64,000 nucleotides of DNA. Source: Eremomyces bilateralis CBS 781.70. Taxonomy: Eukaryota. Positions 7,560 to 45,984 of this stretch are shown here, one piece after another. The first letter of the stretch is position 1. Each line of letters starts with the position of its first letter. The notes beneath the pieces were generated by a model. The model ran no database searches, was not told the DNA's origin, and was given only the letters and a program-made list of their open reading frames with translations. The stretch lies in the NCBI GenBank assembly GCA_010015585.1, contig ML975161.1; one strand, 5' to 3'. The translations under genes were made by a program, and so were the position numbers.

Positions 7560-10500
7560 CTACTCCGGCACAACCGGCTCTACATTCCAGATCATCTCAG
7601 CATACTCATCAATGCACCGATCACTACTAAAGAACCCCATCCGCGCCACGCTCGTGATCGCCCTTGTCACCCACTCCTCCTGATTCCGATATCCCTCGTC
7701 GATCAGCTCCTGCGTCTTGCAGTACGACGCGAAGTCGTCCGAGACGAGGTAGTAGTCGCCGTGGTCGACGATCCCGTTGACCAGCGCCGAGAACGAGGAT
7801 GCGTCGCCAAAGGTCCCGTGCTTGATCGCGTCGAATACGGTGGCGAGCGCGGGGTCGAGTTGGTAGCGCCCGTAAAGGTGCGCGTGGCGGAGGTCTTCGA
7901 CGTCTTCGGCGAGGTTGCCGAAGAGGAAGATGTTGGCTTCGCCGATCTCGCGGGTGATTTCGATCTGGAGGTCGTTAGTTACTTATAATCATGAGGTGCT
8001 GAGATGGGACTCACGTTGGCGCCGTCGCAGGTCCCGATGATCAACCCGCCGTTCAGGACGAACTTCATGTTGCTGGTCCCGCTGGCCTCGGTGCCGGCGG
8101 TCGAAATGTGCTCGCTGATATCGCTGGCCGGCACGATCAATTCGGCCTTGCTGACGTTGTAGTCCTCGAGGAAGATGACCTTCATCAGGTCGCCAACGTC
8201 GGGGTCGGAGTTGATGACCTTGCCTACTTGGTTGATGAGGTGGATGACCGTCTTCGCCATCCAGTATCCCGGGGCCGCCTTGCCGCCGAAGATGTGCACC
8301 CGCGGCATGACCTTCTTCCGTGCGGCAGGGGTCATCGCCTTGATCTGCAGGTAGCGGTGGATGCAGCCGAAGATGTTCAGCTGCTGGCGCTTGTACTCGT
8401 GGATGCGTTTGACCTGAATGTCGAACAGCGACGCCGGATTGACGCTCACGCCAGTCGAGTCCTTGATGAGCTTCGCGAGCCGAACTTTGTTGGCGTATTT
8501 GATCTCCTGGAACTCCTTGCGGAACGCAGCGTCGTCGACGTAGGCTTCCAGCTTGTGGAGCATCGTCAGATCCTTGAGGAAATCATAGCCGCCCAGTTTG
8601 CTCGCGATCAGCTCGGAAAGCCGAGGGTTGGCTTGGTGTAGCCATCGTCTGGGAGTGATACCGTTGGTAACGTTCGTGAATTTATCAGGACCAAAGATCG
8701 CAACGAAATCCTTGAAAATGGTTGTCTTGATGAGGTCCGAATGCAGCTCCGCCACGCCGTTGACTTTGTGAGACCCAATGACCGCGATATACGCCATGCG
8801 AACCATCTTGGGGTTGGACTCCTCGATGACCGAGACGCGGGAGAGCATGTCTCGGTCCTTGGGGAAGGTTCGTTCGACATACTGGAGGAATTGGAGGTTG
8901 ATGTCGTAGATAATTTGAAGGTGGCGGGGGAGGAGATGTTGCATGAGCGGGACCGACCACTTTTCAAGTGCCTCCGGCAGCACAGTGTGGTTGGTATACC
9001 CAAAGGTCTTGCTAGTGACTGCGAACAATCAGCGATGCAATATTTCAATGAAATGAATGTGACATACTGTCCCATGCCTGGTCCCAGTCCAAGCCTTCGA
9101 GATCAATCAAAATCCTGATTAGCTCGGGAATCGCAAGGGTGGGATGCGTGTCATTCAGTTGAATGGCCACTTGGTTAGGGAATTCGGTCCAAGAGCGATG
9201 GGTCTTCTTGAATCGGCGGACGATATCGTATAATGATGCCGCGCACCAGAAGTACTGTTGCTTTAGACGAAGTTCCTTTCCTCGTTCGAGGCTATATGGA
9301 GTTAGCAGAAGAGTGGAAGATCTGAAGCCAAACTCACTTGTCATTTGGATACAACACAGCAGAGATGGTCTCGGCTCGCTGCTGGTCGGCGACTGAGCTC
9401 TCATAATCACCCGAGTTGAATTTCTGGAAGTCAAACTCGCCAGATGCTGCTTTACTGCCCCATAGCCGCAAGTTGTTCGTGGTGGCAGTCTGGTAGCCGG
9501 GAACTGCGCATGTTAGCGAATGGGTTAAGGACGGGTAGAAGAACACTCACTTGGAACATCAAAAGCCAAAGCTTGCACAATCTCGCCCCCCTCCCAAACA
9601 CTGATGGATTTGCCGTCGTCGTCCCTGGATGTATGTTAGACCTACGCTTATCGAGAGTGTCCATTTGACGTACTGATACTTCCTGACGGAACCGTAAAAC
9701 TGGACGTCGACCTTGATATCATGACGAGCGAACTCCCACGGGTTGAAGTCCAACCAGTAGTCGGGAACTTCGACCTGGTAGCCGTCCACAATCTCCTGCT
9801 TGAAGATACCATAGCGATATCGGAGGCCATATCCCCACGCAGGATAGTTCAGGGATGCTAGACTATCCAGAAAGCAAGCGGCAAGACGTCCAAGCCCACC
9901 GTTTCCAAGAGCCGCATCGTGCTCCTGAGCGACGATGTCCTCCATTCGGAAGCCGAGACTTTCAAGCCCCTCTAGATATCTGAAGTTAGCACTGAAATGG
10001 TCGTATTCAGTCCCGTAGTACATACCCTTGGCGATGTTCTTGAGCCCAACGTTCAGCATGGCATTGTCGAGTGTCCGACCCATCAAGAACTCGAGAGAAA
10101 GGTCTGACCACTGATTAGTCCAGCACCCAGTCAATCTGCCTGGATCACCCACAGTATACGCGTTTCTGGTCCTTGAACGTATGGTTCTGCTGCGTCGTAT
10201 TCCAATCGATGATGAGCCGGTCGCGAAATGCGAGGGCAGTCCCGGCGTATGTCGCGCTGAATCACCAGTGGTCAGCATGCAGATATGGGTTGTGAGGGAG
10301 CGAGTGCATACAATTCATCGCAATTGTACAAGGATCGCGCAAGGGTGGTCTCGATATGTCGGATAGCTTCTCTCTTCGCATCGTCAGCTCTTGTCTGGGT
10401 ATGTCAGAGAGCTTCATTACCTCAAACTCCTCGGCTGTCTGGAAAGGCTTCGGTGCCTGTTCATCTCTTTGTCAATATGTATTGGATATGACAGGGTGGT

Positions 10501-13031: not shown

Positions 13032-13442
13032 CCTCCCCGCCGTGGATGGGGAGGGGGGGTGAGAAGTCCTTCGTCAGCGATGGCGACGTGTAGACGGCGA
13101 GGGACACACGCGTGGTAGCCTCCTCCCTGCCACAGTCACGGTTAGTGACGATACTCCAGGCGCTCCACGTGCGATTTCGATTGTCGTCGCTGCTTCAGGC
13201 GTCGATCTCAGTCTATCAACGACAGGACCCACGGCCGCCACACCCCCTCAGCCCAGTCCATTAGCCAGTGACGAACCGCGACCACCTCCATCACGTCGAA
13301 GCACGACCTCGTACTCCCAATCGCAATCTGTTCCCAAATGGTCATCTTCTGGTCATTCTTCGAGACGATCAATAAGTGCCAGTCATGATCTTGAGCGGTG
13401 AGAAGCAGGAGAGCGGGCCACGGCTTACTCGGAGTGGTTCGG

Positions 13443-13727
13443 ATCAGAGCGAGACGTTTCAGCCAGGTATCCGTCCATATCGCGATCTCGGGTTTACTGA
13501 CCGTTCATGATTTCATAGGGCCCTTGGTTTCAATAGGGATGGCAATGGGATTACAACCAATCTGAGTTGTGTGGTTCTGGGACTCGATGGGTTCGCCAGG
13601 GAGCGGACGGAGGCGGTCCCAAGCTTCGTTGATGGCCGAGTCCGGTTTAAGTGTGACAACGTAATCAACGACGCGGCCGTGGAGAGCGGAGCGCACGAGG
13701 GATGCGGGTTCGGTTCTGGCCGTTTTT
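13443..13727 (-). pseudogene. Fragment of a fungal PD-(D/E)XK nuclease-like gene
   Basis: Reads KTARTEP...RVVDYVVTLKPD...NHTT...PIAIPIETKGPMKS*TVSKPEIAIWTDTWLKRL, matching the family pattern VD...NHT...PIAxxIETK...xIAIW; TGA at 13505-13507 interrupts it. Confidence 0.7.
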
Positions 13728-13767
13728 CTACGGCCATGAGCATGTGACTGTTGAGATCTACGACGAG

Positions 13768-15151
13768 ACGAAGACGAAGACGAGCTGGCCAACCTGTTTC
13801 GTTCCAAAGTGAACATCTTAGCCACAGAACAAGATTCAGAACGGGTTTTGAATCTCCACAAAGATTCAAGAGAGATTGGAACTATTGTTTTTCCAGACGG
13901 CGACACGTTTGAGCAAAATGTTATGTTGTGGGCTATTTCGGAATGCATACTGGCAACTTGCATGCAATAAGCCGATATCTTAGCACTTCCGCCGAAGCTA
14001 AACTCTTTCTACACAGAGAAGACAATACTGGAAACACTTCTCTGATCATGGCGGCGGAAGAGAAGAGCCATGAAATGATGTCAGTCCTTTACAACACGGT
14101 GCAGATACGAACGCTATCAATGATGGACGAAGTCCGCTCATGGAGGCAGCGCTCTGGGGACGAATTGAAAGCGTGAAAGCGCTGCTTACCGCCAACACTG
14201 ACAAACGTCTTCGAGATCAGAAGGGTCGGTGGATATAGCGCAGCGGGCTCGCAAAAATGAAAAGGAAAGATAGGAGCGCGCTTCTATCGCTGCAGCAGAG
14301 AAAGTTCCCGAGCGTGACGAAGACAGGCGAAACATTGTCCTTTTACTCAATGACTCGGCCACCAAGAAGCAGCATGGATGCACCGGACCGCTTTCGGAGG
14401 GTGAACTGAACAAGTATAGCTTCAGGGAATCCCGATCTGAGATGGCAATTACGCTTTATGGACCCGTTGGCAGCTACCGCGTGCCATGAATTACCAAAAC
14501 TGGCGCCGTTCTAGACGGTAGGGATCAATTTGCTCGTATATCGGCAACTAGTGGCTGGGGTGCCGATGCTCTGCCTCTAAACAACAATACTGGGACACAC
14601 TGGACTGAGCACGTCTCTTATATCGCTTCCACGATTGGCCATAAGCTCCAAGATGCGCCATATCCGGGTTGGGGCCAGGGCAAGCCGGGGCAGGATTGTG
14701 CTTGCCATGCGGAGAAGAAGTTGATCGCCTACTTCATAGACAGGCACGGGTTCATGCCGCAAGACAGAGAGCAGACCAGGATTTGGAAGACTCAATCCGT
14801 GAAGTGGAAGACTTTCTTGCAGACGGAAAGCACTCGTCCGTAGCCTGGGAAAAGGCGTGTGATCTGGAAGAAGGAAAGTAGAATTTGACTCCCAGCTCTT
14901 CGACGCAGATCATCGATTACTGGGCGATTCTGACGATGAGCAAATGGTCAAGAGACTGAAATCTGAGATGCATGCGATCGATGAAGAACTGTTATGGTAA
15001 GCCTTGAGTTGGACGCTAGCGTGGCTGCGATGAGAGCACAGGAAAGGGGCAGTCTTATTGATCAGCAACGAGATCTGCGAACTGTGATATGTTCAAGAGA
15101 AAGGAGAATACCTGTTTCCAGTTGAATATCGAAATGCGCCGGTGCACCTAA
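13768..15151 (+). pseudogene. Decayed ankyrin-repeat + SsdA/DYW-like zinc-dependent deaminase gene
   Basis: Across frameshifts: ankyrin GNTSLIMAA and GADTNAINDGRSPLMEAALWGRIESVKALL; SGW (14550-14558); GQGKPGQDCACHAEKKLIAYFIDRH (HAE 14706-14714); ISNEIC-E/-C-DMF (Cys 15076 and 15083, frameshifted); stop 15149-15151. Internal stops at 14271 and 14487. Confidence 0.85.
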
Positions 15152-17743: not shown

Positions 17744-18916
17744 TCAACCCCCCTCCTGCGCCGCTCGCGCAGCGTCCTCGGCTTCCTTGACGGCGATCCG
17801 CTTCTGCTGCTCCTCCTCCGATAGGGCCTCGAACTCCGCGAGGTCCGCGTCCCATTTCTGCACGCACTCCATATTCCAGTTACAGGCTTCCACTTCGCCG
17901 AACATCGGATGGCTGTACCGGTGGTGGTTCGACGGCCAGCCCGACGCGTGATAATGGTGCTTGACCAGTGCGATCTTGCCATCGTGATTGCCGGAATCGG
18001 AATGGCCTTGGCCGGCGGCGAAGGCCTCGACGGTTAGAACGAGGATTCCGCCCACGGACTTCGATTCCCGCAGGTTGGTGAAGGTGTGCCAATTGACCTC
18101 ATGGCCTTCCCTTTTTGACATCTCCGCCAAGATCACGTTGGTAAACGCGGACGGGCCGGTGCCACTGATGACCTGGTCAAAGTCCAGCTCGATGTCGGAG
18201 ATGGGCTTGTTTTGCTCGCGGGCCACGCCGTCCAGCCAGATGATGATGTTGTTGATCAGCTGTAGCATCACCGGAAGCTTGGGTTTGCAGATGAACGTCC
18301 ACTGGCAGAACGACTGGGATTTCGGCCCAAGGATGGTGTGGTTGGAGAATTCAGGTTCGTCGATCTCGACTCCGACGATCATGTCGATGGACTTCTCGTT
18401 GTAGCGCTCGGGAATGAAGAAGTCCAGCGGCTTGAGAGCCTCCACGTCGATGTCGGTCCAGACGCCTCCTTCGGCGTACATAATCAGGTAGCGGAGGAGG
18501 TCGGCTTTGATGATTTTCGCGGTGAGGTGGCGGTAGACGTAGACGATATCCGGTCGATTGAAGCCCTCGGGGCCAAAGTAAGTCTCGACATATTGCATAT
18601 CATTCTGGTCGGTCAAGACTTCGTATCGATACCTCGGATTCTTCCCAACCCACGACCGGGCGAGGTTCAGGTCCCTCTCCTCAAAGTTGAGAGGGTCAAC
18701 TTTCCAGGACTGCCATATTTTCCTTGGAAAATGCCCGCCTGTGACTGAGGACCGATAGGCGAAGCGGCCCAGGTTCCCCGTGTTTAACAAGAAAATCGAG
18801 AGGATGATGCACGCGATAAGGACAGGTATCCGATTGCGAGAGCGAAACGGGAAGTAACTCCCGAAATGCTGCACCGGCGCGTGCATTTTCTTCTCGGAAA
18901 GATTTGAGAACCGCAT
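17744..18916 (-). CDS. OCH1-like alpha-1,6-mannosyltransferase (GT32)
   Basis: Type II TM anchor, FPRKIWQSWK, KADLLRYL and the DxD motif GGVWTDIDVE, QFCQW-like SFCQWT, TGP. Alternative ATG at 18958. Confidence 0.9.
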   Translation of the reverse strand: MRFSNLSEKKMHAPVQHFGSYFPFRSRNRIPVLIACIILSIFLLNTGNLGRFAYRSSVTGGHFPRKIWQSWKVDPLNFEERDLNLARSWVGKNPRYRYEVLTDQNDMQYVETYFGPEGFNRPDIVYVYRHLTAKIIKADLLRYLIMYAEGGVWTDIDVEALKPLDFFIPERYNEKSIDMIVGVEIDEPEFSNHTILGPKSQSFCQWTFICKPKLPVMLQLINNIIIWLDGVAREQNKPISDIELDFDQVISGTGPSAFTNVILAEMSKREGHEVNWHTFTNLRESKSVGGILVLTVEAFAAGQGHSDSGNHDGKIALVKHHYHASGWPSNHHRYSHPMFGEVEACNWNMECVQKWDADLAEFEALSEEEQQKRIAVKEAEDAARAAQEGG

Positions 18917-20614
18917 CAGCTCTCCGGAATTAAACGAGTGAAAAGACCATGGAGTCATAGGAGAAACAGGCGACGAAATCAACGAAGGGAGAGTCCAAAC
19001 GTTGGGAAGGATCGTAACACTTTTTTCGAGATCGGGACGCGCAACTTCGCAAACGACAAAATGCTGGGCACCCCAGGCGGGGATATATGTGGATGGCGAT
19101 TAGGGAGTTAGTATGAAACCTTGCAAGGAGCGCCGAGGCCACAGGGAGGGAAATTAATTTCTACGCATGGAGGAATGGAGAATGGGCGCGATGGAGGGTT
19201 CGGTGAAGAACCCGATGCACGCTTGCACAGTTACATTCGTGATTTTTGTTGCCACGGACCGGGGCCGATACGGACGATGCTGGTCGGGGGGTCTAGTCGG
19301 CGAACGGATTTCCGATCTAACGCTTGCGGTTGGGATCCGCATGGCCAGTGGTGAGTGAAGCATTTAGATTCATGACGGCAAAGAGATAGCGCGTGGATCA
19401 GGACTCGATTCGGCGATTGGTGTTAAAGGGTACGGCTGGTATCCCTGTTGCATCCCTGAGTGCTAAGGTCCTTGATCGATATTTGTGTCGTGCAAAAGGT
19501 TTGGACGTTGGAATTGCGATGTGAGCGTGAACCAATCCCACGGGAATCAAGTCAACGGCCAAACCGATCAGGGGCCATTGAATAGCAGCTGTTGTTGGAG
19601 GAGTAGTGGTTGTTACTCCTGGCGAAGGGTACCACTTGACGAATGGGGTGTACACTATCCCGCGTAACAGAAACATTGGTCGGGCATCAATAAGGATGAG
19701 CGGGTGACCCGGCCGGTGCAATTAAGACGCAATTGTTCTGGAAGCCCAGGTTGATAGCGTGGTTGGACAGTTTCCCGGTTCCTACGGGAGCCCCCTAGAG
19801 CCTGGACTCGCCCTAGGGGAACTGTGAGTAGGGGGTTACAGCGTCTTCGGACAGCTGTACGCAGTACAGGACATTTGTACTTGTGTGCTCCCTACGACTG
19901 GCTACTTCGCGCCTTTCAGATGTTAGGCAAGGGAAAAAGTGGGCTTCTTGAGGCGAATTCAGGGGAAGCGAGGATCATCCCCGTTCACGTCCCTTACTAT
20001 CCCTTCATATCAGCAACGGCGCGGGGAAAAGGGGGTCAACACCGGTTCCCCATTGGTGAAGACTACCAGCCGGCCTCGGTGAAGGCGTCGCCTCCAGTAG
20101 ATTAATTACAATTTCGCACCATACCATGTGAAAAGCCACCTATTAGTATTAAGGCACAGCGACAGAGTGCCGCCGACTATAGACAGACGGTGCCAAAGCC
20201 TGCCCTTCGCCCGGATGCCCCAGCACCGAACTCCCCCATTTGTGAATCGCCCCGATTTTCTCATGCGGAATGCTGAATCTGAAGCATGCCATTGAAGTTA
20301 GACGTCCGTGACGCATTAATCCATCGGTGCTAACTGCTAACGGCCTAAGCGTGCTAACACCTAAGGTATGTCTCGAATTCCCTGGGGTGTCAGATAATTC
20401 TCAGCCCACACCGTGGCTATCGCCGAGTGTTTGCGGCCATCTGTCTTCGTCGGACCTTTGACTTCAGGAGTTCAAGTTGGAAATTCTCTCTCCTTCACTT
20501 CTATGCCATTCTTTTCGTGATTTTTTGGAGGGTCTGTACATGTCGAGCTCCATCGACACCGATGAATGATCACTGAACCGTCTTTCGACTCCGTTCCGTG
20601 CGAATACCTCCTGG

Positions 20615-23256: not shown

Positions 23257-24531
23257 CTAGACAAACACTTCACCATAGTCCACCATGTTCGGTGACCATT
23301 TAAAGCCTTCTCCGGCATGTTCCGTTTCACTCGGCAGCGTGACTTCCAGCGGGCTGTAAAGATACCACGACTTAAGCGCTGCCGCCGCCGCTCGTACTCG
23401 TGCCTCCATAAGACTCGCCCCAGCCGCTTCTCCCAACTTGTCTTTCCCGGAGTACACGCCCACCACGTACACCGGATGCCGGCTCAGTCGACCGGTCTCC
23501 GAGATGAGTCTCGCCACCGGCGCTTCGAAGCCTTCTCGGCCGCAGAGAATCGCCAGTTCCCGTTGTGGGTGCCGGAACTGGAAGAGGGACGCGACGTCGA
23601 GTCTTCGCGAGAGGAAGTGCGCTTGGAAGAAGCGCTTGGTGGCGATGGGACCGCAGTGGAGGTACAGAGCACCGATGAGTGCCCTGACGAACGATTTGTA
23701 GGCGTCCTCGACAGGTATACCAACAGGTTCGGCCTCGGCGCCAGTCGCGTGGTCTTCCGCATTTGATATCGTTTCTCTTGGCACGTCTTTGGGGAACTTG
23801 AAGTTCGTGTTCGAGAAAGGGGTTGTCACCCCTTTATGGAGGTCGCCGAACTGGTCGTCGTATAGCACTCGCGAACTCAGCGTCCGCCTCCGATTGCCCC
23901 AAGCTTCCTCCGGCGACGCGACCTCCTCGCCCGAGGCGAGCTTCAAGTGCTGCAAGAGCCCCGGGTCGACCTCACCGCCGGGATGCGCGGCGGTCTCCAC
24001 ACCCCATTCCTTGGCGATCGTCGCGAGGGCGGTCGATCCAACATACGCGGACTGCGCGGCGAATAGGATCGCGATGGGTATCCGCGGATAGTGGCAGAGG
24101 AGGTATTCGGAGGTGTAGTATCCGAGGAGGTCGGAGCCGAGGGTTTCGAGGGCGGCGTTGTTGAACTGCGGGTTCGGATCGGCGGAGGGGGTGACGAGGG
24201 CGCGGGCGAGGGTTTGGATGGGGAAGCGGGAGGGGAGAGAGAGTCGGGCGTGGAGGGCGGACAGTTTCGGAGAGGACAGCGAGCGCTGGACCAGTGGTGA
24301 CGGGAGTTCCTCGTCCTTCCAACGCCGCGTCCGGGGACGGTCTATCGGTTGTCCATCCTCGAAGGACGGATGGGGATTGCTGGCACTTTCCTGCGCAGCG
24401 TATGCCGAGTATCTACGGCATTGAGGGAGGGAGAAAGGTGTTGGGGGGTGGGATCGAAGGAAGTGAGGATGCGCTCGTGACGGAGAACGCAGGTATAGAG
24501 GAACCTGCGTTCGTAACCGGATGGGCTTCAT
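23257..24531 (-). CDS. MRPL3: Mitochondrial ribosomal protein mL44 (degenerate RNase III + dsRBD)
   Basis: Arg-rich presequence, KLSALHARL, VRALIGALYLH, SETGRLSRHPVYVVGVYSGKDKLGE, ALKSWYLYSP. Confidence 0.92.
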   Translation of the reverse strand: MKPIRLRTQVPLYLRSPSRAHPHFLRSHPPTPFSLPQCRRYSAYAAQESASNPHPSFEDGQPIDRPRTRRWKDEELPSPLVQRSLSSPKLSALHARLSLPSRFPIQTLARALVTPSADPNPQFNNAALETLGSDLLGYYTSEYLLCHYPRIPIAILFAAQSAYVGSTALATIAKEWGVETAAHPGGEVDPGLLQHLKLASGEEVASPEEAWGNRRRTLSSRVLYDDQFGDLHKGVTTPFSNTNFKFPKDVPRETISNAEDHATGAEAEPVGIPVEDAYKSFVRALIGALYLHCGPIATKRFFQAHFLSRRLDVASLFQFRHPQRELAILCGREGFEAPVARLISETGRLSRHPVYVVGVYSGKDKLGEAAGASLMEARVRAAAAALKSWYLYSPLEVTLPSETEHAGEGFKWSPNMVDYGEVFV

Positions 24532-24831
24532 GAACAAATCGGGAGGGCCAACACCATCTGCTCTATATCCTGTCAGCGGCCGGGAAGCAATAGAGAACGA
24601 GATTCCGAGAACGTGGGCTAGAAAGAATCAGTGAAGTGGTTGAATGTTTGGAAAGTTCGACGTCGAAAAGTCGAGAAGAGAGAATGTCCCAAAGCGGTTT
24701 AGTCGCATACGATTGCTCGGCGGCTCAACTCCAACGTCAAGGAAGTCCACTATCATCGCAATTGAAGCTATCTTTGCGAGCAATTCCCAACACCTCTCTC
24801 CTTATACCGATTATTTCCGGGTCCTTTCACA

Positions 24832-31784: not shown

Positions 31785-33905
31785 GACTGAATGTCAGAAT
31801 CACAAACACGGTTCGTTTAGAGTAAGACAGAACGAAAGATCCAGACAGATTGAATTTGAAACGAGATATCGAAGTGAGAATTGCAAGTAGAAAACAGGCC
31901 GGGTTACAAAGGATTCACATGTTAAGAGTCCGTTGCAGCGTGGAAGTGACGGCGAGATCAGTGCCTTCTCATATTCAGGCGCTCCATGGCCGACACTTGT
32001 CTTACCGGCATTCATATATCGAAGAAAGCCATAACAGCCTCCTTCGGTTGAGTCCATGTACTTACCAACCAAACGAACCCGTCATCGCTGAGCAGAATGG
32101 GTTTCGGAGATGACAAGAATCCGAATCACGCAAGTTAGAGGGGGCGGACAGTTGCACAGCCAAGTGATTTACCACTGCCGGATTCCCACGCCGGTACATG
32201 TATGCCAACATCCAACACCTGATGGATGAAATCGCGGAATCGATGATTAGTGCCAGGTTCATCCAGTGGAAATTGGAAAATCACAGAGACGTTGTGCGTT
32301 CGGGCAGTCAACCTTGCCTCCGCTAAACCAGTAACCACTAGACGGGCCGATCGTTCGACGCTGGAGGGCGAAGTGAAAATGCACTTCCTTTTCTCTTTTG
32401 ATGTGCTTGACTGAGGAGTGAGGATGTATTCTCCGAACCGGTAGTACACCGCGGCGCTCCCGGTGGCAGGTGACAAGCCGTCCGCTCTTCAGGATTGCAA
32501 CACGTCGGTTGCTTGCGGAGTCGGCGGCTGCGGACAGGTATTTGAAGACCAAGCCTGGGCGTCCCTGGAAATCGTGGCCGACCCGGATCTGGATATTGGA
32601 CAATTTACACAGGGCTGTACACACGACACCCCCCCCCGCAAGACGTTCGCCGAGCTTGGCTGCCCTATCATGGAACGGAATCCAAGCCATCCTGCCCCGC
32701 CACCGTGTGCTATTCTCAGATGGCTGCAGGTTTGGGGCATATCCGACTCGAATTGCATACGGTACGGCAGTATTCCCACGCATGGTGCGGAATCGAGACG
32801 ACTGGATTGACGAAGAGAACCTCCAGCGAGCAACTGATATCATGAAGTGGATTCTTCTGCTGCGGACCAAGGCATTGCAACTTGCATGACTGTTCGATAG
32901 CTAGGGCAAGGCTGGGCTGCATCCAGCCTCCTTCATCCTTCCAGCTTCATCCTTCCAGCTTCTTGTTGAAGTCTGAACACATTGAAGAAATAGAACATCG
33001 GATGGTCCAGGAGACTCGTAGACACTAGACAGAGTCAGGTAAGGTATTTCTCTCAATTTCTAAGTCCGAACTAAACGTGACCATGCGTCAATCCTCAGTC
33101 GCGTCGCGTCTTCATCGAAAAAGCAACGCTTAGCGACTAGTCCCAGCAACCGGGGGGATGCCGGGATCTCTTACGGCCCCGTGAGGCTGCTCCCGCTTGT
33201 CCAACGCGCTGCCCCCACCCCCCTAATAGCAAATCAAAAGTGTGAGAAACACTGCCGCCGCTATCCAATTGTTCCCTCTTACCAAGCACCCCCTCCTTTC
33301 TCTTTCCATCGCCTTTTGATGCACCAACTCACCCCTCTTGGTTCTAAACTGCCATCGTCATTCGCATCCAAATTAAATTACCTTGACGAAGACCCTGAGG
33401 CATCGATTTTCTCAGCCTTGGGCATCTTCGTCAAGGAGCTTCATTCCGTGCAACCACTGCGAGCTAAGCATTGCGATACGGCTGGCGAATCGAGATCAGG
33501 CTGTGGGCGATAAACAGCCCCTTTGGTGTCAATTGGATAAGTCGAGCTTTGGTTTATGTGTATGGAGAGCATCGCTTGTTTCTTGCTTCAAATTCCTTCT
33601 TTTCAAAGTTGAACTTCTCTTAGAAAGTCCTCTGGACAATATATGTGTACCATCGGGTACAGCTCAATTGGCGTGGACCTAAAGCTTACACATGGAGAGA
33701 AACCGAATACAGAAATATAGTTGGGTTACATGGCTGGACTCCCTAGATTGAGCAGCCTTACAAACGATATTGGGCATTGTTTCTTTCCTTCACCCTAATA
33801 TCGGTACCCTTCACTACGCTACCTAGGGCTCTCCTAAGACACCATTGCATTGGTCCAACCATCAGGTCCTGCTCCATTGGGTTCCAGCACCAGCATCGGT
33901 CCGAT

Positions 33906-36900
33906 ATGCCCCAACTACACTCACTCTCCACCCCTTCCGGGATCAGGACTTACTCCCCGGGACATCAAACGCCGGGAAATATCACCCCGTTGAGCAAGAG
34001 ATCCCTCACAAGCAAATATAAGCATTCTCATTATATGGTCAATGGTGCAATCCGGGAACTCAACCGGAGGTGGATGTTTGGATTCCAGGAGCGTCCCTCG
34101 CTCGATGATCCGACCAGCCATTCCTTCGACCATGGCGCATCTATTCGAGCATTCGATGGGATCCTAGCCCTGTTCTTCCATAATTCATGGGATGAATTCA
34201 TCGAGCTTCATGAGGATCACTGGGACTCGCTGCCGCAGCATGCACGACTCGACCGCTTCTTGGACGCCCTGGACACCTTTCGAGAAACTAGTCGTTCCGC
34301 CGGGAAAGGCAAAAGGTCGGAATCCACCCCGCAAATGTCGCCGGTATCGTCTTTTGCGGAGAAACTACAGAAGGCGGGCACGCCCATTCCCAAACGACGT
34401 CGCACCCCCTCGTTTGGCGAGGGTCATGCGGCGACGCCATTCCTCGCGGCCCCAATACTGCCTCCGCCGAAGAAGCGGATTTCCAATGGAGATTCGGCCA
34501 GTGTACCCTATACGACGGCGCAGTCCACCAGCGGAGCACCACCTAGCAACATGCTACCACCGGCTGCACAGCTTAACTGGTCTTTTGGATCCACTGTACC
34601 CTCTGCTAATGCCTCGTTTGGCGCCGTTTTTGACAGCAACCGTCTATCTAGAAACACATCCTTCACCACTGTACCCACTGAGCCGGATGAAGACTTCTAC
34701 AAAGAGCCGTTGCAACAGGAAGACCCAGGGCTAGACTTTGGCTGTCCCCCCTCCAGTTCGGACCCCCTTGCTGGGTTCACCGACAGCCAACTCGAGCTAG
34801 TCTTTCGCGAAAACAATTCACAGGACCAACCGCAAGTCCCCGAGCCCCCCCGCCGCGATGGGAATGGCCGGACGGAGATGTCTATTGTCCGCGATTTCCC
34901 CTCCAAAGGTCTCCATATTGACTTCTTCAACGAACTCCTTCACTTGGACTTCTTTAAGCGTTTCGAGTGTGCGCGAGTATCAATCGATACCGACCGGAAG
35001 GTAAAGACCATCTGGCCCAAGGTGCAATGTGCTGATGACTACGAATCATTCTGGAGTCCCGTCAAGCAGTTCCCGTTGATTGCACGCCCTTCGTTGAAAG
35101 CATGGCAAGCCGGCCGCGTGCAGTCGCCGAATGTGTACTACACGGCCGAGTTGAAATATAACAAGGACCGTTATAATATCTTCAAACTCATCCTCAATCC
35201 GATCACGGTGGAGGAGACGTCCAATCGGTTGCACCGCAAGTTCGGCAGCCACCGGTTCCTGCATTTGTCGTTTCCCTTGCGGAACCACCTTCCGGACTTC
35301 CTCCGGGGCCAAGAAACCCACCTGTTCGACCGTTTCCGTGAATGGACCGCCAAGCCCAAGCACTTCCTCGGGTGCAGCTGGGAAGTCTTCTATTGCAAAG
35401 AGAAGAAGGTTCGAGCCAAGTCGCGCAAGATGAAAAGCGATGACGACTTCGGACTGCGGATTGTCCTTTTCGCGACGCAGGGTCCACGGATCAAAGATGT
35501 GTCCATTCATGAGTTGCTGGACTGGTTCATGCCTCTCCAAAGCAACGCCCAGATGACATATTGCAAAGGTTTCGCACGCCTGGATCTGGCCCTTTCCGCC
35601 ACCTACCCGAGCGTCAAATTGAAGCCATCCGAGGTGAAGTTCACGCGAGACAAGCTTGCGGACGGGAACCCGGAGGCGTGTGAGTTCGACGACCCCGACT
35701 TCCCACGCTCGAGTGTTGCCTACGATTTCGACCCTGATCGCGTTATGGATGATGGCTGTCAAGTCATGTCAGTCGGACTAGCCAGGGAGATCTGGCTGAC
35801 TCTCGGCGCCGAGGGCCCACTTCCTGCTGCGTTTCAGGGGCGGATTGCCGGCGCGAAAGGGATGTGGTATAGGAGTGCTCCGTCAGACACCACGGATCCG
35901 CATAACCTGCAGAGATGGATCCGCATCAACGACAGCCAGTTGAAGTTCAAGTCGCATTCTGAGGACCTGAGTGACGACAAGAACTACGACCCTGATCGGC
36001 TGACGTTTGAGGTACACTCCTACACCAAGAAACCCGCTCCCGGCGCCATCTACGTGGACTTTCTACCAATCCTGGTCAACCGCGGTGTCCCGGTGGGCGT
36101 TTTGCAGGATATCGTGTCCCGCCCTCTGGACGAAGACGAGAAGGAGCTGCTCGATGGCCTGGAGAATCCCGAGCTGTGTCGGCAATGGATCCATAAGCGG
36201 CACGCATATTTCGAGGACATGCACCGCGAAGCCGACAGCCCCATGCTGTATCAGGGAAGCATGCCCTTTGGCCAACTCGAACGGGCGATCCTGCTGCTGG
36301 AATCGGGATTCGATATCCACCTTGGCCTCCTCGGCGATTTAATGCAGGGGATCGCCAAGTCGTATTTCGAAGACACGTTGAAAACCATGCGCATCGACTG
36401 CGAGAAGTGCGTGAATCTCAAGGGTATCGCGGACCACAGCGGCACCCTGAGTCCAGGCGAGATCCACGTCTGTTTTTCCGAGAGCATCGGGGACGGGCTC
36501 GCGCAGTTCATCAATCAGGAAGTGCTCGTCGCGCGAAATCCGGCGCTGCGTGTCTCCGATATCCAGAAGGTCCGTGCGGTGTTCAAGATGGAGCTGGCGC
36601 ACCTGCAAGACGTCGTCGTGTTCCCCACCCGAGGATGCTTTCCCTTCGCCGCTCGGTTGCAGGGAGGCGACTACGACGGGGACACCTTCTGGATTTGCTG
36701 GGAGAAGAGTATTGTCGACCCGTTCCGCAATGCGCCCGCTCCCACCAAATCGCCGAATACAGGAGATTACGGCGTTGAAGTGGATCGACGGACGCTGGGC
36801 GATGTGCTTAAACCCGCGCCGGAAGGCGGCACCCCGGACGTCCGCGACTATATCAACGAAAGCATCAAATTTCGCTCGAAGGATATCTTGGGGAACATGC

Positions 36901-37982
36901 TGGCGTACTCCACGCTGTACCACCGAAAGGTGGCGTACGCCGCGAATTCCTTGCGACATCCCGGGGTCGAGAAGCTGGCTGATCTCCACGACCTCTTGAT
37001 TGACTCCGCCAAGAACGGGTATCTCTACGACCAGGTCACGTTCCATGACTATATCCGCTCGCAACCGGATATCACCCAGGTGATCCAGGCGCAGCGGGCC
37101 GGGCTGTCCAAGCCAGCGTATCAGGAGAGCATGGAGCAACTGCGATCCAAGAAGCGCAAGTCCACCGACAAGCCTCGATATAACAAAAGCCACATCATCG
37201 ACCACATCTACTTCCAAGTTCTCCAACCCCGCGTGCAGGCCATTCTCCGCCGCTCCTTCGCCCGCATCGCCCATCTCGCCTCCCCCGCCCCCGACCCCAC
37301 CCTCCTCGCCCGCTACCACCACCTCGCCCACAGCGCCGCCCACGACCCGTCCTCCGTCCTCCGCACCACCCTCATCACCGAACTCGACGCCCTTCTCTCC
37401 GCCCTCCGCACCCTCTACGCCCTCCACTGGGCCGCCCCCTCCCGTCACGCCATGGAGCTCGCCGACCGCGACCCCTCCGCCAACGCCTCCCTCGACCAGC
37501 TCGACCGGCGCATCGCGGACTGCCACGTGCGGTACACTGACATCCTCCCACATGACCCCACTCATCCGACCATCGCCGAGTGGCTCATCCCCGCCGCCCC
37601 CGGCATACCGACCTCCTGGGCCATCCTCAAAGCCAGCGCGCTGTACGCAGTCATCTCGGGGGAGGCACGGGACCCGGACCGCCGGTCACCGCGGAAACCG
37701 GGACTACACCGCGCGGCGGGTAGTGGCGGGTTGGCGCGGCAGGGGGAGAAGTTCCTGTGGTATATGGCAGGGACGGAGTTGGCGCGGATGAAGGCGTTTC
37801 GGGAGGGGGGGCGGGCGAGAGTGTTGGTGGAGAGGATGTGGGCGGGGATGAAGCCGAGGAGGATACGGGTGGAGTTGGAAGGGGGTGAGGAAAGGGGGAA
37901 GGAGGTGGAGGAGGTGGAGAAAGAGGTGGGGGTGGATGGGTTTGATAGTGATGAGTTTCATTCTGCGGCAGAGGGTTGGTGA
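33906..37982 (+). CDS. qde-1: Cellular RNA-dependent RNA polymerase, QDE-1-like (RNAi/quelling)
   Basis: About 1360-aa intronless ORF with DGC, FQGRIAGAKGMW, LVARNPAL, DVVVFP and catalytic GGDYDGD followed by WICWE. Confidence 0.92.
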   Translation: MPQLHSLSTPSGIRTYSPGHQTPGNITPLSKRSLTSKYKHSHYMVNGAIRELNRRWMFGFQERPSLDDPTSHSFDHGASIRAFDGILALFFHNSWDEFIELHEDHWDSLPQHARLDRFLDALDTFRETSRSAGKGKRSESTPQMSPVSSFAEKLQKAGTPIPKRRRTPSFGEGHAATPFLAAPILPPPKKRISNGDSASVPYTTAQSTSGAPPSNMLPPAAQLNWSFGSTVPSANASFGAVFDSNRLSRNTSFTTVPTEPDEDFYKEPLQQEDPGLDFGCPPSSSDPLAGFTDSQLELVFRENNSQDQPQVPEPPRRDGNGRTEMSIVRDFPSKGLHIDFFNELLHLDFFKRFECARVSIDTDRKVKTIWPKVQCADDYESFWSPVKQFPLIARPSLKAWQAGRVQSPNVYYTAELKYNKDRYNIFKLILNPITVEETSNRLHRKFGSHRFLHLSFPLRNHLPDFLRGQETHLFDRFREWTAKPKHFLGCSWEVFYCKEKKVRAKSRKMKSDDDFGLRIVLFATQGPRIKDVSIHELLDWFMPLQSNAQMTYCKGFARLDLALSATYPSVKLKPSEVKFTRDKLADGNPEACEFDDPDFPRSSVAYDFDPDRVMDDGCQVMSVGLAREIWLTLGAEGPLPAAFQGRIAGAKGMWYRSAPSDTTDPHNLQRWIRINDSQLKFKSHSEDLSDDKNYDPDRLTFEVHSYTKKPAPGAIYVDFLPILVNRGVPVGVLQDIVSRPLDEDEKELLDGLENPELCRQWIHKRHAYFEDMHREADSPMLYQGSMPFGQLERAILLLESGFDIHLGLLGDLMQGIAKSYFEDTLKTMRIDCEKCVNLKGIADHSGTLSPGEIHVCFSESIGDGLAQFINQEVLVARNPALRVSDIQKVRAVFKMELAHLQDVVVFPTRGCFPFAARLQGGDYDGDTFWICWEKSIVDPFRNAPAPTKSPNTGDYGVEVDRRTLGDVLKPAPEGGTPDVRDYINESIKFRSKDILGNMLAYSTLYHRKVAYAANSLRHPGVEKLADLHDLLIDSAKNGYLYDQVTFHDYIRSQPDITQVIQAQRAGLSKPAYQESMEQLRSKKRKSTDKPRYNKSHIIDHIYFQVLQPRVQAILRRSFARIAHLASPAPDPTLLARYHHLAHSAAHDPSSVLRTTLITELDALLSALRTLYALHWAAPSRHAMELADRDPSANASLDQLDRRIADCHVRYTDILPHDPTHPTIAEWLIPAAPGIPTSWAILKASALYAVISGEARDPDRRSPRKPGLHRAAGSGGLARQGEKFLWYMAGTELARMKAFREGGRARVLVERMWAGMKPRRIRVELEGGEERGKEVEEVEKEVGVDGFDSDEFHSAAEGW

Positions 37983-39935: not shown

Positions 39936-41413
39936 GGACGCGGCAGGTCAAAGGCTCTGCCCATGTTCTAGAACAGGTGTGGTTTTAAGAGAGGGATTTT
40001 GGGATTGTCGGGCCATGGGTGGGAAATAGGTGTGCTCCATCACTGGCATCAATCATCATCCATATATTTCTTTTCCACGTCACCTGTCGCGACTCTCTCC
40101 TCTCTATCATCACTGGCCTCCAAACAAAAATGGAGTCAGGCGACAAGGCGTATATCAGACAGTTAGTACATGTCACGTGGTGTAATCTGCAATTCATGGA
40201 ATTCATTCCATTTGAACATTGAACACTAAATAGTAAATACACTCCGTAATCAATCTAACTCCGCATCGCTCAGTGACACTCACATACAATGAAACCGTGA
40301 GGTGTGCTAAAATTGTAGCCCTGCCTTGCAGCTGGTGCTCGTGCTCATCCTCCATCGCTTATAGTTTATATATATGCACCGGTCGAAAAAGCAATGGCCG
40401 CTTAATCCCCAATCGTTCGGCAGCCCGAGATATGTGGAGGTGATTCAGGCGGGCTGTCCCGAAAAGGAGCTCCCATCCAGCTCCATCCAATAATCCAAGG
40501 GACCATGACTCCATGAGACTTTGAGAGACGAGAATTGATCGGTCACAGACTAGTTCACATCCTGGAATGATTGATCACTGCGGCGTCTAGGACCAGCATG
40601 CTGCAAATCTCGACAAGTTGCATATCAGATCTGCATCCGATGATCGATCCAGTCACACCCATCTCCCTAATACAACTTCAAAAGCGAAAATGCTCTCTGC
40701 TTGTTCCTTATCCGGACGTCCCACTACCATGCTGAGCCTTCTCTGACTGCGTTCCATGGCCTACTGTCGTGTTGCAGTGGTTGCATGCACTATCCGACGC
40801 AGTGCAACATCCACCAATATCTCCTCAAATCATCCATCATCGATCGTCGTGTTGGGCGGACTCCCGATTCTTCCTGCGAGCATCACGGCGCGCCAGCCAA
40901 GTCCCTTGCTGTGGATTCCCCAGGTATCCTGATCGAAATCGACATCGGTATCTCGGCTGGCCTGTAGATGCGGCTACCCGCAGAAATCGAGGCATCAAAC
41001 CCTGCATTTCCTAAACCTCCTCCATCTCCTCCCACTGCACAGCCATTGCTGAAAGGGCTGCCATATACCAGTAGGATTGCGGTGTGCATACAGGCTGAGA
41101 AAGGACGCGTTGGTTTATTCTCTTTCTCAGTTCCTTTCCCGCGCTTACCGTTGTGAAACACCACTGGCTTGACCTACGACGCGCCACCGACCATCGCACC
41201 ATCCAGTCCAGAAGCCTCTTTGCTCGCCGATTCAGCTTCCTTGGATCCTTCCGCCGTTTATATATATTCTGTGACCAAATCCGATTTTTCGTCGTTCATT
41301 CTCTCAGATTTCCTTTCTCTCGAATTTTGCCTCTGATGCGCTCCACTGCCGCGTCCTTTTAGGGACCTTGGGCAGGAGTTGGCGTTAGTAAAGGAGACGA
41401 AGTCGGAACCATC

Positions 41414-44400: not shown

Positions 44401-45984
44401 CGACGAAATTAGCACCCTGGGCATTAAACAGGAGGAAGGCGAAAATTCCCGGGAAAGTCTGATCCTGGGAGCCTTTGATTTGTACCCTAGCGAAAGGGTA
44501 CATTCACTATGCGAATGGGAGCTCCAACTCCAGCAAAGGCGGATGAAGGATGTCATGATCTTGGTCGGTACGAGCTACACCAAGAGACGCAGTAACCGCC
44601 TAGAAGAGCTTGGGCGAATTATCATCCTACGCATTGCCCTGGCCAAGGATGGGACGTGCAAGTTCGCGGTCCTGCAAAAACTGGAAGTTCCAGCTCCTGT
44701 CCGAGCGGTGGCTTCGTACGAAAAGGATGGCGTGGTCATGTGCACGGGGAAGAATCTGGTCTTGAAACGATACTCGAAAGAAAGGAAAAGGTAAGGAAGA
44801 TTATGCGTTTTACTAAGTCATTGAGCTAATTATCTACCAGGCTCCTGACCACCACTTCAATCGAGCTTCAAGCCCCGGGATACAGGATGTCAGTGTTGCC
44901 GCCTGTTATTCACGTCTCAACGGCAACCGACTCGGTGATGTCGTACAGAGTACAAAATCGGACCAATCCTTCAAACACAGCAGCCAACCCGGATCGGACC
45001 CATCCAGTCGAAGAGTTTGTCCTGTTTGGGTCAGACACTATCGCCCGCACCTCGGCAACGCATCTTGAGGTGACCATCGAGAACGACGCGCGATCACTGA
45101 ATGGAGTTCCATGGCTCAATATCAATGGAGAATCGAGCCCTAAGCTGCTGCTTGTGTCGGACAAAGACAAAGGCCTGGCGGCTCTATGGCAACCACCATC
45201 TCCCGACATCGATAGGGCGGGGGTGGACAACCGACCAGCATCCGAAATATCACTTAATCGATCCATCACGACGCTTCGCCAGCTTTCGAATCGTCCTCCG
45301 TGGAGGAATCCTTCTCAGTATCTCGCCGACGCGCAAGAACCTAGATCCCCCTCGGATAGTCCCACGGTACGCGGCGCCCTGGTGGACAACTTGCTCGGCT
45401 CCTCCCATGATGGTACGCTTTTCGCTTTTACCATCGTCGACGCGGCGTCCTGGAGACTTCTACGATTCCTTCAGAACCTGGTCACATCGGTCACGAAACT
45501 TACCGAGCAGCGTCCGGCTAACGGAAGCAACAAAGACAACGAGGAGGACGAGGAGGACGGGCGCACGTTGATGCAGCTGGGGTTCCTCGACCCGGACCGA
45601 CAGCTGCTCAACACGAACCGGCAAACGAACTTCCACATCAACGGCGACATCGTGATGGCACTTCTGAGGCCGGGAGGCGTGGACGATTTGGTTCGGATGC
45701 TGCACTTGATTCCCCGCAAACGGGAGGCCCCGCCTGGGGAACGGGCTCCCGGGGAACCGGAGAGCCAGGACTCGTGGGATCAGGAGTTCGGCATGGATCT
45801 CGACGAGGCGCTGGGGGATTACGAAGATAACCAGAGGAACAAGAGGGAGGTGAAAGAGCGGGTGGAGCGGTTCCGACAACTGGCGGCGGAATTTGGGACC
45901 GGTCAGCCGGCGGAGGATAAGCTTGAGGAGGTGGTTGAGCGAGTTTTGAAATGGGTCCGGGTCCTTTTGATGTCGCCCATGTAG
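41414..45984 (+). CDS. Mms1/DDB1/Rse1-family beta-propeller protein ('thermotolerance protein'-like), 4 exons
   Basis: Four ORFs joined by introns near 42336-42388, 43855-43901 and 44791-44840; PARIR...DLVFVGED, GKHLAVDAHGRAIAV, DWAP and C-terminal HINGDI. Confidence 0.8.

Follow-up and report, generated by a model that had tools for sequence, protein, structure and literature searches.

A decayed gene of Eremomyces bilateralis, very probably for an ankyrin-repeat SsdA-type deaminase, adjoins a truncated nuclease-like pseudogene

The plus-strand interval 13767-15151 of a 64,000-nt stretch of Eremomyces bilateralis CBS 781.70 (contig ML975161.1; this whole stretch is called the window) is very probably, on the evidence of its sequence, the decayed remnant of a Pezizomycotina-type fungal gene that encoded ankyrin repeats followed by a zinc cytosine deaminase domain of the SsdA type, that is, BaDTF2-like and within the DYW clade. 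The remnant is a member of this family by descent, though not a working one. It cannot encode a protein, as it lacks a 5' end and a start codon, has eight breaks and two stop codons in its reading frame, and carries a CxxC motif that is out of register. What is newly described here is that it adjoins, in head-to-head orientation, another pseudogene without its 5' end, one of the PF20516 nuclease family. The deaminase family itself was recognised in 2011, and Pfam and UniProt today annotate its members automatically (PF24120). As a dead copy from a large family already known by computation, the locus itself carries little weight, but it shows that Ank-SsdA_C genes have been gained and lost in the Dothideomycetes, which fits their patchy distribution.

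The interval is colinear with residues ~83-586 of ascomycete proteins of ~575-600 aa that carry ankyrin repeats and the PF24120 SsdA_C domain, as found by tblastn and by a frameshift-aware alignment. In the latter, the colinearity spans all three frames and reaches 72.5% identity to homologue P0002 over 444 aligned codons. With seven intact homologues as queries against the whole window, tblastn matches were confined to 13767-15148 and were again colinear. The largest open piece (14490-14843, 117 aa) found matches at E<=0.001 in 50 of 135 scored candidates, the strongest reaching 5.2e-41 and 67-80% identity; a precomputed domain column assigns both Ank and SsdA_C to 38 of these 50 relatives, SsdA_C only to ten and Ank only to two. 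The same piece matches Pfam SsdA_C with E=3.1e-16 over profile positions 1-56 of 56, and its score of 60.2 bits, above the gathering cutoff of 27, compares with 61.1 bits for intact P0002. No piece of the remnant matched the Pfam DYW_deaminase profile (PF14432) at E<=1. Upstream of the SsdA_C match, in the order seen in the homologues, the piece 14074-14235 matches Ank (PF00023, E=3.4e-6, 27.5 bits, cutoff 21.1) and Ank_2 (E=4e-6), and Ank_2 also matches the piece 13913-14176, more weakly and below the cutoff (E=0.0095). A preliminary description, made from the DNA letters, had proposed an ankyrin and SsdA/DYW-like deaminase pseudogene with two ankyrin repeats. The family call is borne out by Pfam and by intact fungal homologues of identical architecture, with weak agreement from the fold, and tblastn and the frameshift-aware alignment confirm a broken and stopped frame; of the two repeats, the second exceeds its Pfam cutoff and the first is the weaker Ank_2 match.

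Nine segments can be followed along the remnant by tblastn, the frameshift-aware alignment and reading of the sequence. The first (13767-13949, frame 0) corresponds to homologue residues ~83-143, ahead of the ankyrin repeats. The loss of one base at 13950-13951, in a codon that specifies Phe in the homologues, moves the frame from 0 to 2, in which segment 2 (13952-14086) holds the first ankyrin-like repeat, GNLHAISRYL...LIMAAEEKSHEM. One base of a Leu codon is lost at 14087-14088 (frame 2 to 1), and segment 3 (14089-14229, frame 1) carries the second ankyrin repeat, with one further codon lost in frame near 14119. The third frame break, within 14218-14231, removed about two codons (about 7 nt, net -1; frame 1 to 0); its exact place is ambiguous, being 14218 in the frameshift-aware alignment and 14229-14231 when read by hand against the homologues. 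Segment 4 (14232-14771, frame 0) comprises the linker and the N-terminal half of the deaminase domain, and within it lie both nonsense codons, a TAG at 14271-14273 where the homologues have Tyr and a TGA at 14487-14489 where they have Arg.

The SGW motif, in the context ATSGWG, is at 14550-14558, and HAE is at 14706-14714 inside CHAEKKLIAYF (14703-14735). SGW is almost invariant across 35 relatives, and the His and Glu of HAE are invariant in 35/35 family members. These two motifs, like the frameshifted CxxC, lie where the preliminary description had put them, as judged by direct reading and by alignment with the homologues. Its statement that no single open reading frame shows the motif set holds for the full set, but SGW and HAE do occur together in one listed frame of 117 codons. 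As for the meaning of SGW, the available excerpt of de Moraes 2021 (PMC7901873) agrees with its use as a mark of SsdA and BaDTF2 in stating that it is unique to BaDTF2 members, and the motif is defined there and in an excerpt of PMC11789416 as lying in the insertion before the HxE helix.

Beyond HAE, the homologues have about 150 residues before CxxC, modelled as four long helices, so that the long helical insert proposed earlier finds support both in the homologue alignment and in the AF2 model of a relative. The corresponding insert of the remnant occupies 14736-15045, less an ~86-nt deletion. One base of a Pro codon is lost at 14772-14773 (frame 0 to 2), and segment 5 (14774-14869, frame 2) specifies the first helix of this coiled-coil insert, the helices being those of the relative's model. 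A base lost from a Glu codon at 14870-14871 (frame 2 to 1) leads into the middle of the insert in segment 6 (14872-14994, frame 1). Five extra bases at 14995-14999, equivalent to 2 nt plus one codon, restore frame 0 for segment 7 (15000-15044), which holds the insert part SLELDASVAAMRAQE. At 15045-15048 only four bases stand against 30 homologue codons, and the frame passes from 0 to 1. This ~86-nt deletion removes the end of the insert's last helix and the linker ahead of the zinc-site strand; in tblastn, homologue residues 535-563 (P0002 numbering) find no counterpart between 15075 and 15080.

After the deletion the remnant reads AVLLISNEIC against AVILSSNEIC in the homologue. Segment 8 (15049-15078, frame 1) thus holds the beta-strand AVLLISNEI, which is strand 265-270 in the relative's model, and the first Cys of CxxC (15076-15078). 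Two bases are lost at 15079, by comparison with the family's ICxDC, moving the frame from 1 to 2, and segment 9 (15080-15151, frame 2) contains the second Cys (15083-15085) and the C-terminal helix and strand, NCDMFKRKENTCFQLNIEMRRCT. Both Cys codons are therefore kept, but they are 4 nt apart rather than 6, in frames that differ from each other and from that of HAE, and the remnant has Asn where the family has the Asp of CxDC. Over the last 100 nt, linear gap costs misaligned the frameshift-aware alignment, and the end was read by hand against tblastn and the homologue alignment. In tblastn, 15080-15148 matches homologue residues 553-575 or 564-586, and the TAA at 15149-15151 is the family's normal stop, reached after a C-terminus that ends ...IEMRRCT with no terminal DYW.

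Comparison of folds points in the same direction as the profiles, with less force. Searches of PDB sequences with a full-length profile, and a Foldseek search with a full-length model, were dominated by ankyrin proteins, and the deaminase region of the intact relative P0032, without ankyrins, was therefore modelled (AF2, pLDDT 84.1, pTM 0.75). The Foldseek search of this model against the PDB returned no match at E<=0.001; SsdA was the sole deaminase among the matches, at rank 2 as 7jtu_A (prob 1.00, E=0.028, 26% identity over only 77 columns) and at rank 38 as 9c63_A, and it covers only the half before the insert. A small family profile found 7jtu_A among PDB sequences at E=0.069, across the stretch GQYF-SHAEK. 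A phmmer search of PDB sequences with the 117-aa piece found no deaminase, only chance matches to CaMKII and catalase at E>=0.13. Structural neighbours in the Atlas include plant DYW clusters (TM 0.35-0.37).

The fungal family to which the remnant belongs has 370 representatives at E<=0.001 and 187 clusters (50% identity) at E<=1e-10. Ank and SsdA_C occur together in 59 of 64 long representatives, and secretion or toxin-delivery domains are absent from these. Members are found in Mytilinidion resinicola, Trematosphaeria pertusa, Emericellopsis atlantica, Cenococcum geophilum and Trichoderma spp. The ankyrin fusion and the large insert of the ascomycete DYW-like deaminases were described computationally in what is available of Iyer et al. 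2011 (PMC3239186), with which the background given in the preliminary description agrees; full-text literature searches found no experimental work on the fungal Ank-SsdA_C family. The remnant shares with this family an ascomycete host and the whole succession of pre-ankyrin segment, ankyrins, linker, SGW/HAEKK deaminase, helical insert, AVILSSNxICxDC and C-terminus, and the best members are 67-80% identical to it. The remnant differs in being without the N-terminal ~82-95 codons and in carrying the eight frame breaks, two nonsense codons and ~86-nt deletion set out above. In the AF2 model the HAE helix and the pre-CxxC strand flank the insert, whereas a table in the accessible part of Iyer et al. 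(PMC3239186) places it between strand 3 and helix 3.

Two better-known systems are related. SsdA of Pseudomonas syringae (PDB 7jtu, 9c63), the type member of BaDTF2, is a type VI-secreted ssDNA cytosine deaminase toxin, and it shares with the fungal family the SsdA_C profile, SGW, HAE(K), CxDC-type motifs and the aligned GQYF-SHAEK stretch. However, SsdA is a bacterial, secreted protein of about 150 aa, accompanied by an immunity protein, SsdAI, and lacking both ankyrins and the ~125-aa coiled-coil insert, whereas the fungal proteins are eukaryotic, ~580 aa long and have no immunity partner in view. In the strict sense BaDTF2 implies bacterial origin, a link to secretion and an immunity protein, and the fungal host places the remnant outside it. 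No immunity-like domain was recognisable in the flanks of the remnant, where 26 ORFs from 10.6-13.4 kb and 15.06-15.73 kb had no Pfam matches at E<=0.01. The PPR-DYW RNA editors of plants, Naegleria and Laccaria (PF14432) belong to the same clade and, in the available text of PMC3239186, share HxE with a following basic residue and the C-terminal hairpin division. They differ in having a PPR tract, a PG box and a terminal DYW, the features of a classical DYW deaminase; the remnant has none of these and carries SGW in place of PG.

In the intact ancestor and its relatives, the motif set suggests that zinc would be bound by the His of HAE together with both Cys of CxDC, and that the Glu of HAE would act as proton shuttle in the hydrolytic deamination of C to U. 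The SGW loop is likely to sit beside the active site, as in SsdA; because of this placement, ssDNA seems by analogy a likelier substrate of the intact fungal family than the organellar RNA of plant DYW proteins. The ankyrin repeats may bind a partner or a target, and the four-helix coiled-coil insert, running from the HAE helix to the CxxC strand, could act as an oligomerisation or regulatory arm. In the preliminary description the remnant was taken for what may have been a fungal system of nucleic-acid editing, defence or toxicity. The main alternative, possible but rather unlikely, is that the intact family edits RNA in the manner of plant DYW proteins, with ankyrins replacing PPR repeats in targeting. 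Iyer et al. 2011 (PMC3239186), as far as its available text goes, assigned the ascomycete proteins to the DYW clade and suggested organellar mRNA editing as a possibility, a view repeated in the accessible part of a 2025 paper, and the plant DYW clusters among the Atlas neighbours are consistent with it. Against this, the family has the motif given as unique to BaDTF2 in the excerpt of PMC7901873, and the tested representative of that group, SsdA, acts on ssDNA. The remnant ends in ...RRCT rather than DYW, and the DYW_deaminase profile finds no match in any of its pieces. Ankyrin repeats, moreover, usually have proteins rather than RNA as their partners. The family bears SGW, HAE and CxDC together, the signature of bacterial toxins that act on ssDNA. 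A DNA rather than RNA cytosine deaminase in filamentous fungi, should the family prove to be one, would be relevant to genome defence and to base editors.

The second pseudogene lies on the minus strand at 13217-13735 and retains the last ~170 codons of a PD-(D/E)XK nuclease-like gene (PF20516, PDDEXK_12), as found by Pfam and tblastn. Its two pieces match PF20516 at E=8.9e-17 and 8.3e-8, an in-frame TGA stands at 13505-13507 where homologues have Trp, and the N-terminal ~190 codons are missing; in tblastn it matches residues 194-363 of 367 of homologue P0052 with 73% identity, and 17 homologues are 62-80% identical to it. About 30 nt separate its truncated 5' end from that of the deaminase remnant, and the two ends point at each other. 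The simplest account of this arrangement, going by the adjacency of the two, would be a single deletion that removed both 5' halves together with the intervening sequence.

The two genes could in theory have formed a functional, divergent two-gene cassette, a defence or conflict module or the cargo of a mobile element passing between Pezizomycotina classes, which decayed after a single deletion of the shared promoter region and both 5' halves. The head-to-head position and the nonsense codons in both remnants are in keeping with this, as is the closeness of distant relatives: P0003 shares 73-80% identity with deaminase members in the Sordariomycetes, Lecanoromycetes and Dothideomycetes, rows of Sordariomycetes fall within those of Dothideomycetes in the deaminase tree (supports 90-92, not starred), and the nuclease remnant shows its 62-80% identity, while a transcription factor encoded in the window reaches only ~44% against orthologues from other Dothideomycetes. 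The transcription factor is an unreliable reference, as genes of this kind change quickly. No named species is common to the deaminase and the nuclease matches, nor are the domains fused, PF20516 being present in 0/64 long deaminase representatives and Ank or SsdA_C in 0/17 nuclease matches. The flanks contain no other domain remnants, and a search of 9-18 kb for terminal or direct repeats around the locus gave short chance pairs only. Adjacency in one genome may be chance, and the cassette is on balance doubtful. Much more speculative still is a horizontally mobile Pezizomycotina conflict or genome-defence cassette of which the remnants would be relics, the SsdA-type enzyme deaminating foreign or repeated ssDNA and the PD-(D/E)XK partner cutting the damaged DNA. 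If it existed, it would be a DNA-mutator system of filamentous ascomycetes, widespread (187 or more clusters at 50% identity) yet unstudied, and could have a bearing on the origin of C-to-T repeat mutation in these fungi.

A functional gene would have a start codon and one uninterrupted or spliceable frame, and the deaminase remnant has neither. The earlier summary of its damage as mostly small indels plus two stops is right about the two stops (TAG 14271, TGA 14487), but the frame is broken by eight indels, among them the ~86-nt deletion, and the 5' end is absent as well. When the first 110 aa of 36 homologues were searched against 9-17 kb for the missing N-terminal ~82-95 codons, nothing was found beyond the remnant's own start at E<0.2; at E<=50 there were only spurious matches (E>=0.2), in the glycogen phosphorylase gene and elsewhere. 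That gene (7979-10314) and a glycosyltransferase gene (17744-19099) bound the locus on its two sides. Selective constraint on the remnant has been relaxed. Of the covered columns, four of 41 that are invariant in the family are changed, as are 20 of 104 conserved at >=90%, and its terminal branch in the tree is 0.28, against a median of 0.10. The dinucleotide indices give no RIP signature: TpA/ApT is 0.56 and (CpA+TpG)/(ApC+GpT) is 1.43, values that the customary thresholds class as non-RIP and that are, like the GC content of 0.497, within the window's own range.

Assembly error is unlikely to lie behind the lesions, because other frames of the window are open for 1411 codons (4236 nt), 766 and 551 codons, with Pfam domains, and because no lesion falls in a base run longer than 3. 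That the gene is alive, its breaks being introns, programmed frameshifts or assembly indels, is very improbable. Five of the eight frame breaks are single-base losses, and the interval 14997-15041, starting GTAAGC and ending CAG, has the look of a short intron; it was rejected as one, since the homologues align without a gap across it when a different frame is read. The frame changes occur within a few bases, leaving no room for introns, and neither the two nonsense substitutions and the 86-nt deletion nor the lost 5' end and the altered family-invariant residues suit a living gene. An indel rate of about 6 per kb would be very unlikely to leave frames open for up to 4236 nt, as they are elsewhere in the window. 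As to the motif set being a chance product of stitching frames together, that frames had to be combined to see it is all that can be said in favour, and the idea has next to no probability beside the E values of 3.1e-16 to Pfam and 5.2e-41 to intact proteins and the colinear order of nine segments across 1.38 kb.

The plus-strand locus at 13767-15151 holds the remains of a gene for ankyrin repeats joined to an SsdA_C deaminase domain (Pfam PF24120). The window copy is a new but dead member of an already known family; published work describes the family together with its insert and its fusion to ankyrins, and current databases label the domain. The preliminary description had named an ankyrin plus SsdA-type deaminase, and the Pfam profile and colinear homologues of like architecture bear this out. 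Ankyrin repeats are matched on the piece at 14074-14235 (Ank, E=3.4e-6, plus Ank_2), and seven intact homologues used as tblastn queries align with the locus in nine colinear segments, hopping among three frames, this being their only match in the whole 64-kb window. Identity with P0002, an intact fungal homologue, is 72.5% over 444 codons in a frameshift-aware alignment. The longest open frame on this strand of the locus is 117 codons (14490-14843); it contains both ATSGWG and CHAEKKLIAYF, so part of the motif set first said to show in no single ORF is seen in one.

The lesions were mapped by frameshift-aware alignment with P0002 and a further homologue, P0003, the last 150 nt being read by hand. 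The 5' end is absent: nothing upstream of 13767 corresponds to the first ~82-95 residues of the homologues. On the plus strand, one base has been lost at each of 13950, 14087, 14772 and 14870, one codon has been lost in frame at ~14119, and a net -1 frame change with loss of about two codons lies at 14218-14231, whilst TAG replaces Tyr at 14271 and TGA replaces Arg at 14487. Five extra bases (14995-14999), a deletion of about 86 nt or 30 codons (15045-15048) and the loss of two bases from within CxxC, in between its Cys codons (15079), which confirms the frameshift first described in that motif, precede the normal family stop, TAA, at 15149-15151. Eight frame-breaking events, two nonsense codons and the missing 5' end uphold the pseudogene call; the two stops and small indels are as first described, but 'mostly small indels' understated the damage, given the ~86-nt deletion and the absent 5' end. 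A search of 9-17 kb with residues 1-110 of 36 homologues did not find the missing N-terminus, the only other matches being spurious (E of at least 0.2).

The remnant is a dead gene, neither an artefact nor a live gene. An origin of the indels in assembly is unlikely, since at the remnant's ~6 indels per kb the 4236 nt that are free of indels elsewhere would be very unlikely; open frames of 1411, 766, 551 and 498 codons, all with Pfam domains, occur elsewhere in the window, and no small lesion lies within a base run longer than three. An intron at 14997-15041 is rejected because homologues read coding sequence there, and each of the remaining shifts of frame takes up only a few bases, leaving no room for introns. 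Constraint on the remnant is relaxed: of the 44 columns that do not vary among 35 family members it covers 41, four of which are changed in it, as are 20 of the 104 covered columns that are conserved at 90% or more. In a 49-row tree (quick search, LG+G4; the remnant plus every one of the 48 family rows that reach 290 aa) it is placed beside the homologues P0001 and P0005 (SH-aLRT 96), on an end branch of 0.28 against a median of 0.10.

The 117-aa translation of 14490-14843, searched against 5.8 billion proteins with the search set to longer proteins, gave 135 scored candidates, 50 of them at E<=0.001 (best E=5.2e-41; 67-80% identity), and most homologues are 545-645 aa. According to a precomputed domain column, 38 of the 50 carry ankyrin and SsdA_C, 10 SsdA_C only and 2 ankyrin only. 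All named matches are Ascomycota (Emericellopsis, Mytilinidion, Trematosphaeria, Plenodomus, Psora, Trichoderma, Cenococcum, Nemania, Bipolaris, Bimuria and Poronia). An exhaustive phmmer search of 1.84 billion representatives with P0032, a Cenococcum geophilum relative without ankyrins, gave 370 matches at E<=0.001, of which 187 have E<=1e-10 and 34 have E<=1e-30; 82 of the 147 new representatives among the matches listed combine SGW and H[AST]E[KR] with a late CxxC. Pfam, run on the 64 of these 147 that have at least 380 aa, found SsdA_C in 63, ankyrin families in 60, both in 59, and no other kind of domain. SGW, HAEKKLIAYF and AVILSSNxICxDC show little or no variation across 35 full-length members, where HAE and CxxC are about 150 residues apart. 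Residues 1-95 of intact relatives (P0002, P0003 and others) form a conserved Cys/His-rich segment (consensus CPYCEEIHRHG...C.PGG) that matches no Pfam family and has low confidence in the AF2 model, and it is this part that is wholly absent from the window copy. Members from three classes (Sordariomycetes, Lecanoromycetes and Dothideomycetes) are 73-80% identical, and Sordariomycete rows are nested among Dothideomycete rows in the family tree (supports 90-92, not starred), which would fit either horizontal spread or strong constraint.

Full-length P0003, modelled with AF2 (pLDDT 77.2), has only ankyrin proteins as PDB matches, and the profile matches are ankyrin proteins as well. A second model, of P0032 (299 aa, 40 aligned sequences; pLDDT 84.1, pTM 0.75), has a small sheet that leads to the SGW loop. 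The HAE helix (123-135) is followed by four long helices (146-254), which correspond to the long helical insert first described, and these by a strand (265-270), the CxxC helix (276-289) and one final strand. In a Foldseek search of the PDB with this model, the bacterial toxin SsdA (7jtu_A) ranks second (probability 1.00, E=0.028, 77 columns, 26% identity) and 9c63_A thirty-eighth, the remaining matches being coiled-coil proteins that fit the insert; no PDB match reaches E<=0.001. A six-row profile against 7jtu_A gives E=0.069, spanning GQYF-SHAEK. The Atlas has ascomycete clusters with 238 and 73 members and, among structural neighbours at TM 0.35-0.51, bacterial clusters of SsdA_C and Toxin-deaminase proteins together with clusters of plant DYW proteins. 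The support of these predicted folds for an SsdA-like deaminase is real but weak, and the family call is carried by the Pfam profile. The modelled insert, of ~125 residues, separates the HAE helix from the strand preceding CxxC, whereas the table of Iyer et al. 2011 (PMC3239186) puts it between strand 3 and helix 3.

The DYW-like clade of Iyer et al. 2011 (PMC3239186) includes ascomycetes, whose proteins have a large insert and are fused to ankyrins, the fusion being as the preliminary description had it, and organellar mRNA editing is suggested in that paper as something to look for. According to de Moraes et al. (PMC7901873), SsdA deaminates ssDNA with only residual activity on RNA, SGW (in the preliminary description the mark of the SsdA toxins) is unique to BaDTF2 members, and these members have no PG box, CxC motif or terminal DYW. 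The subfamily hallmarks named in a 2025 paper (PMC11789416) are HAE, CxDC and SGW. The motif set of the fungal family is that of BaDTF2 and not that of plant DYW proteins, which would make ssDNA the likelier substrate. Experimental work on the fungal proteins was not found in full-text searches of papers open without subscription.

A second pseudogene remnant, on the minus strand at 13217-13735, comes from a PD-(D/E)XK nuclease-like protein (Pfam PF20516, with E=8.9e-17 on one piece and 8.3e-8 on the other), of which the C-terminal ~170 residues are left. It matches residues 194-363 of a 367-residue Lojkania enalia protein at 73% identity, has an in-frame TGA (13505-13507) where homologues have Trp, and has lost the N-terminal ~190 residues. 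The two remnants lie head to head with their truncated 5' ends about 30 nt apart, and the simplest account is that one deletion took both 5' halves and the spacer. The two genes may once have been a functional pair; however, the named species in their match lists do not overlap, and no deaminase-nuclease fusions occur among the family proteins examined.

No flanking repeats (9-18 kb) or RIP signature were found at the deaminase locus, nor further domain remnants by Pfam in ORFs of the flanks (10.6-13.4 kb and 15.06-15.73 kb). GC is ~50-60% in the region, and the genes around the locus are ordinary housekeeping genes, so the relic lies in a normal gene-dense region rather than a repeat-rich island. 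These encode glycogen phosphorylase (7979-10314, minus), an RSE1/DDB1/CPSF-A beta-propeller protein (41363-45984, plus), a SWIRM-Myb (Swi3-like) protein (53124-55418, minus) and ETF alpha (56476-57234, plus). The window also has a Zn2Cys6 transcription-factor gene (49962-52750, plus) with two exons 100% identical to a protein of the Dothideomycete Eremomyces bilateralis CBS 781.70, a record that probably stems from this very assembly and so is no independent check of the sequence; its next best matches are ~44% identical. Two genes of RNA-silencing type are less than 10 kb apart, one for an RNase III plus dsRBD protein (23257-24627, minus) and one for an RNA-dependent RNA polymerase (33747-37982, plus; PF05183, E=7e-111, 1411-codon open frame).
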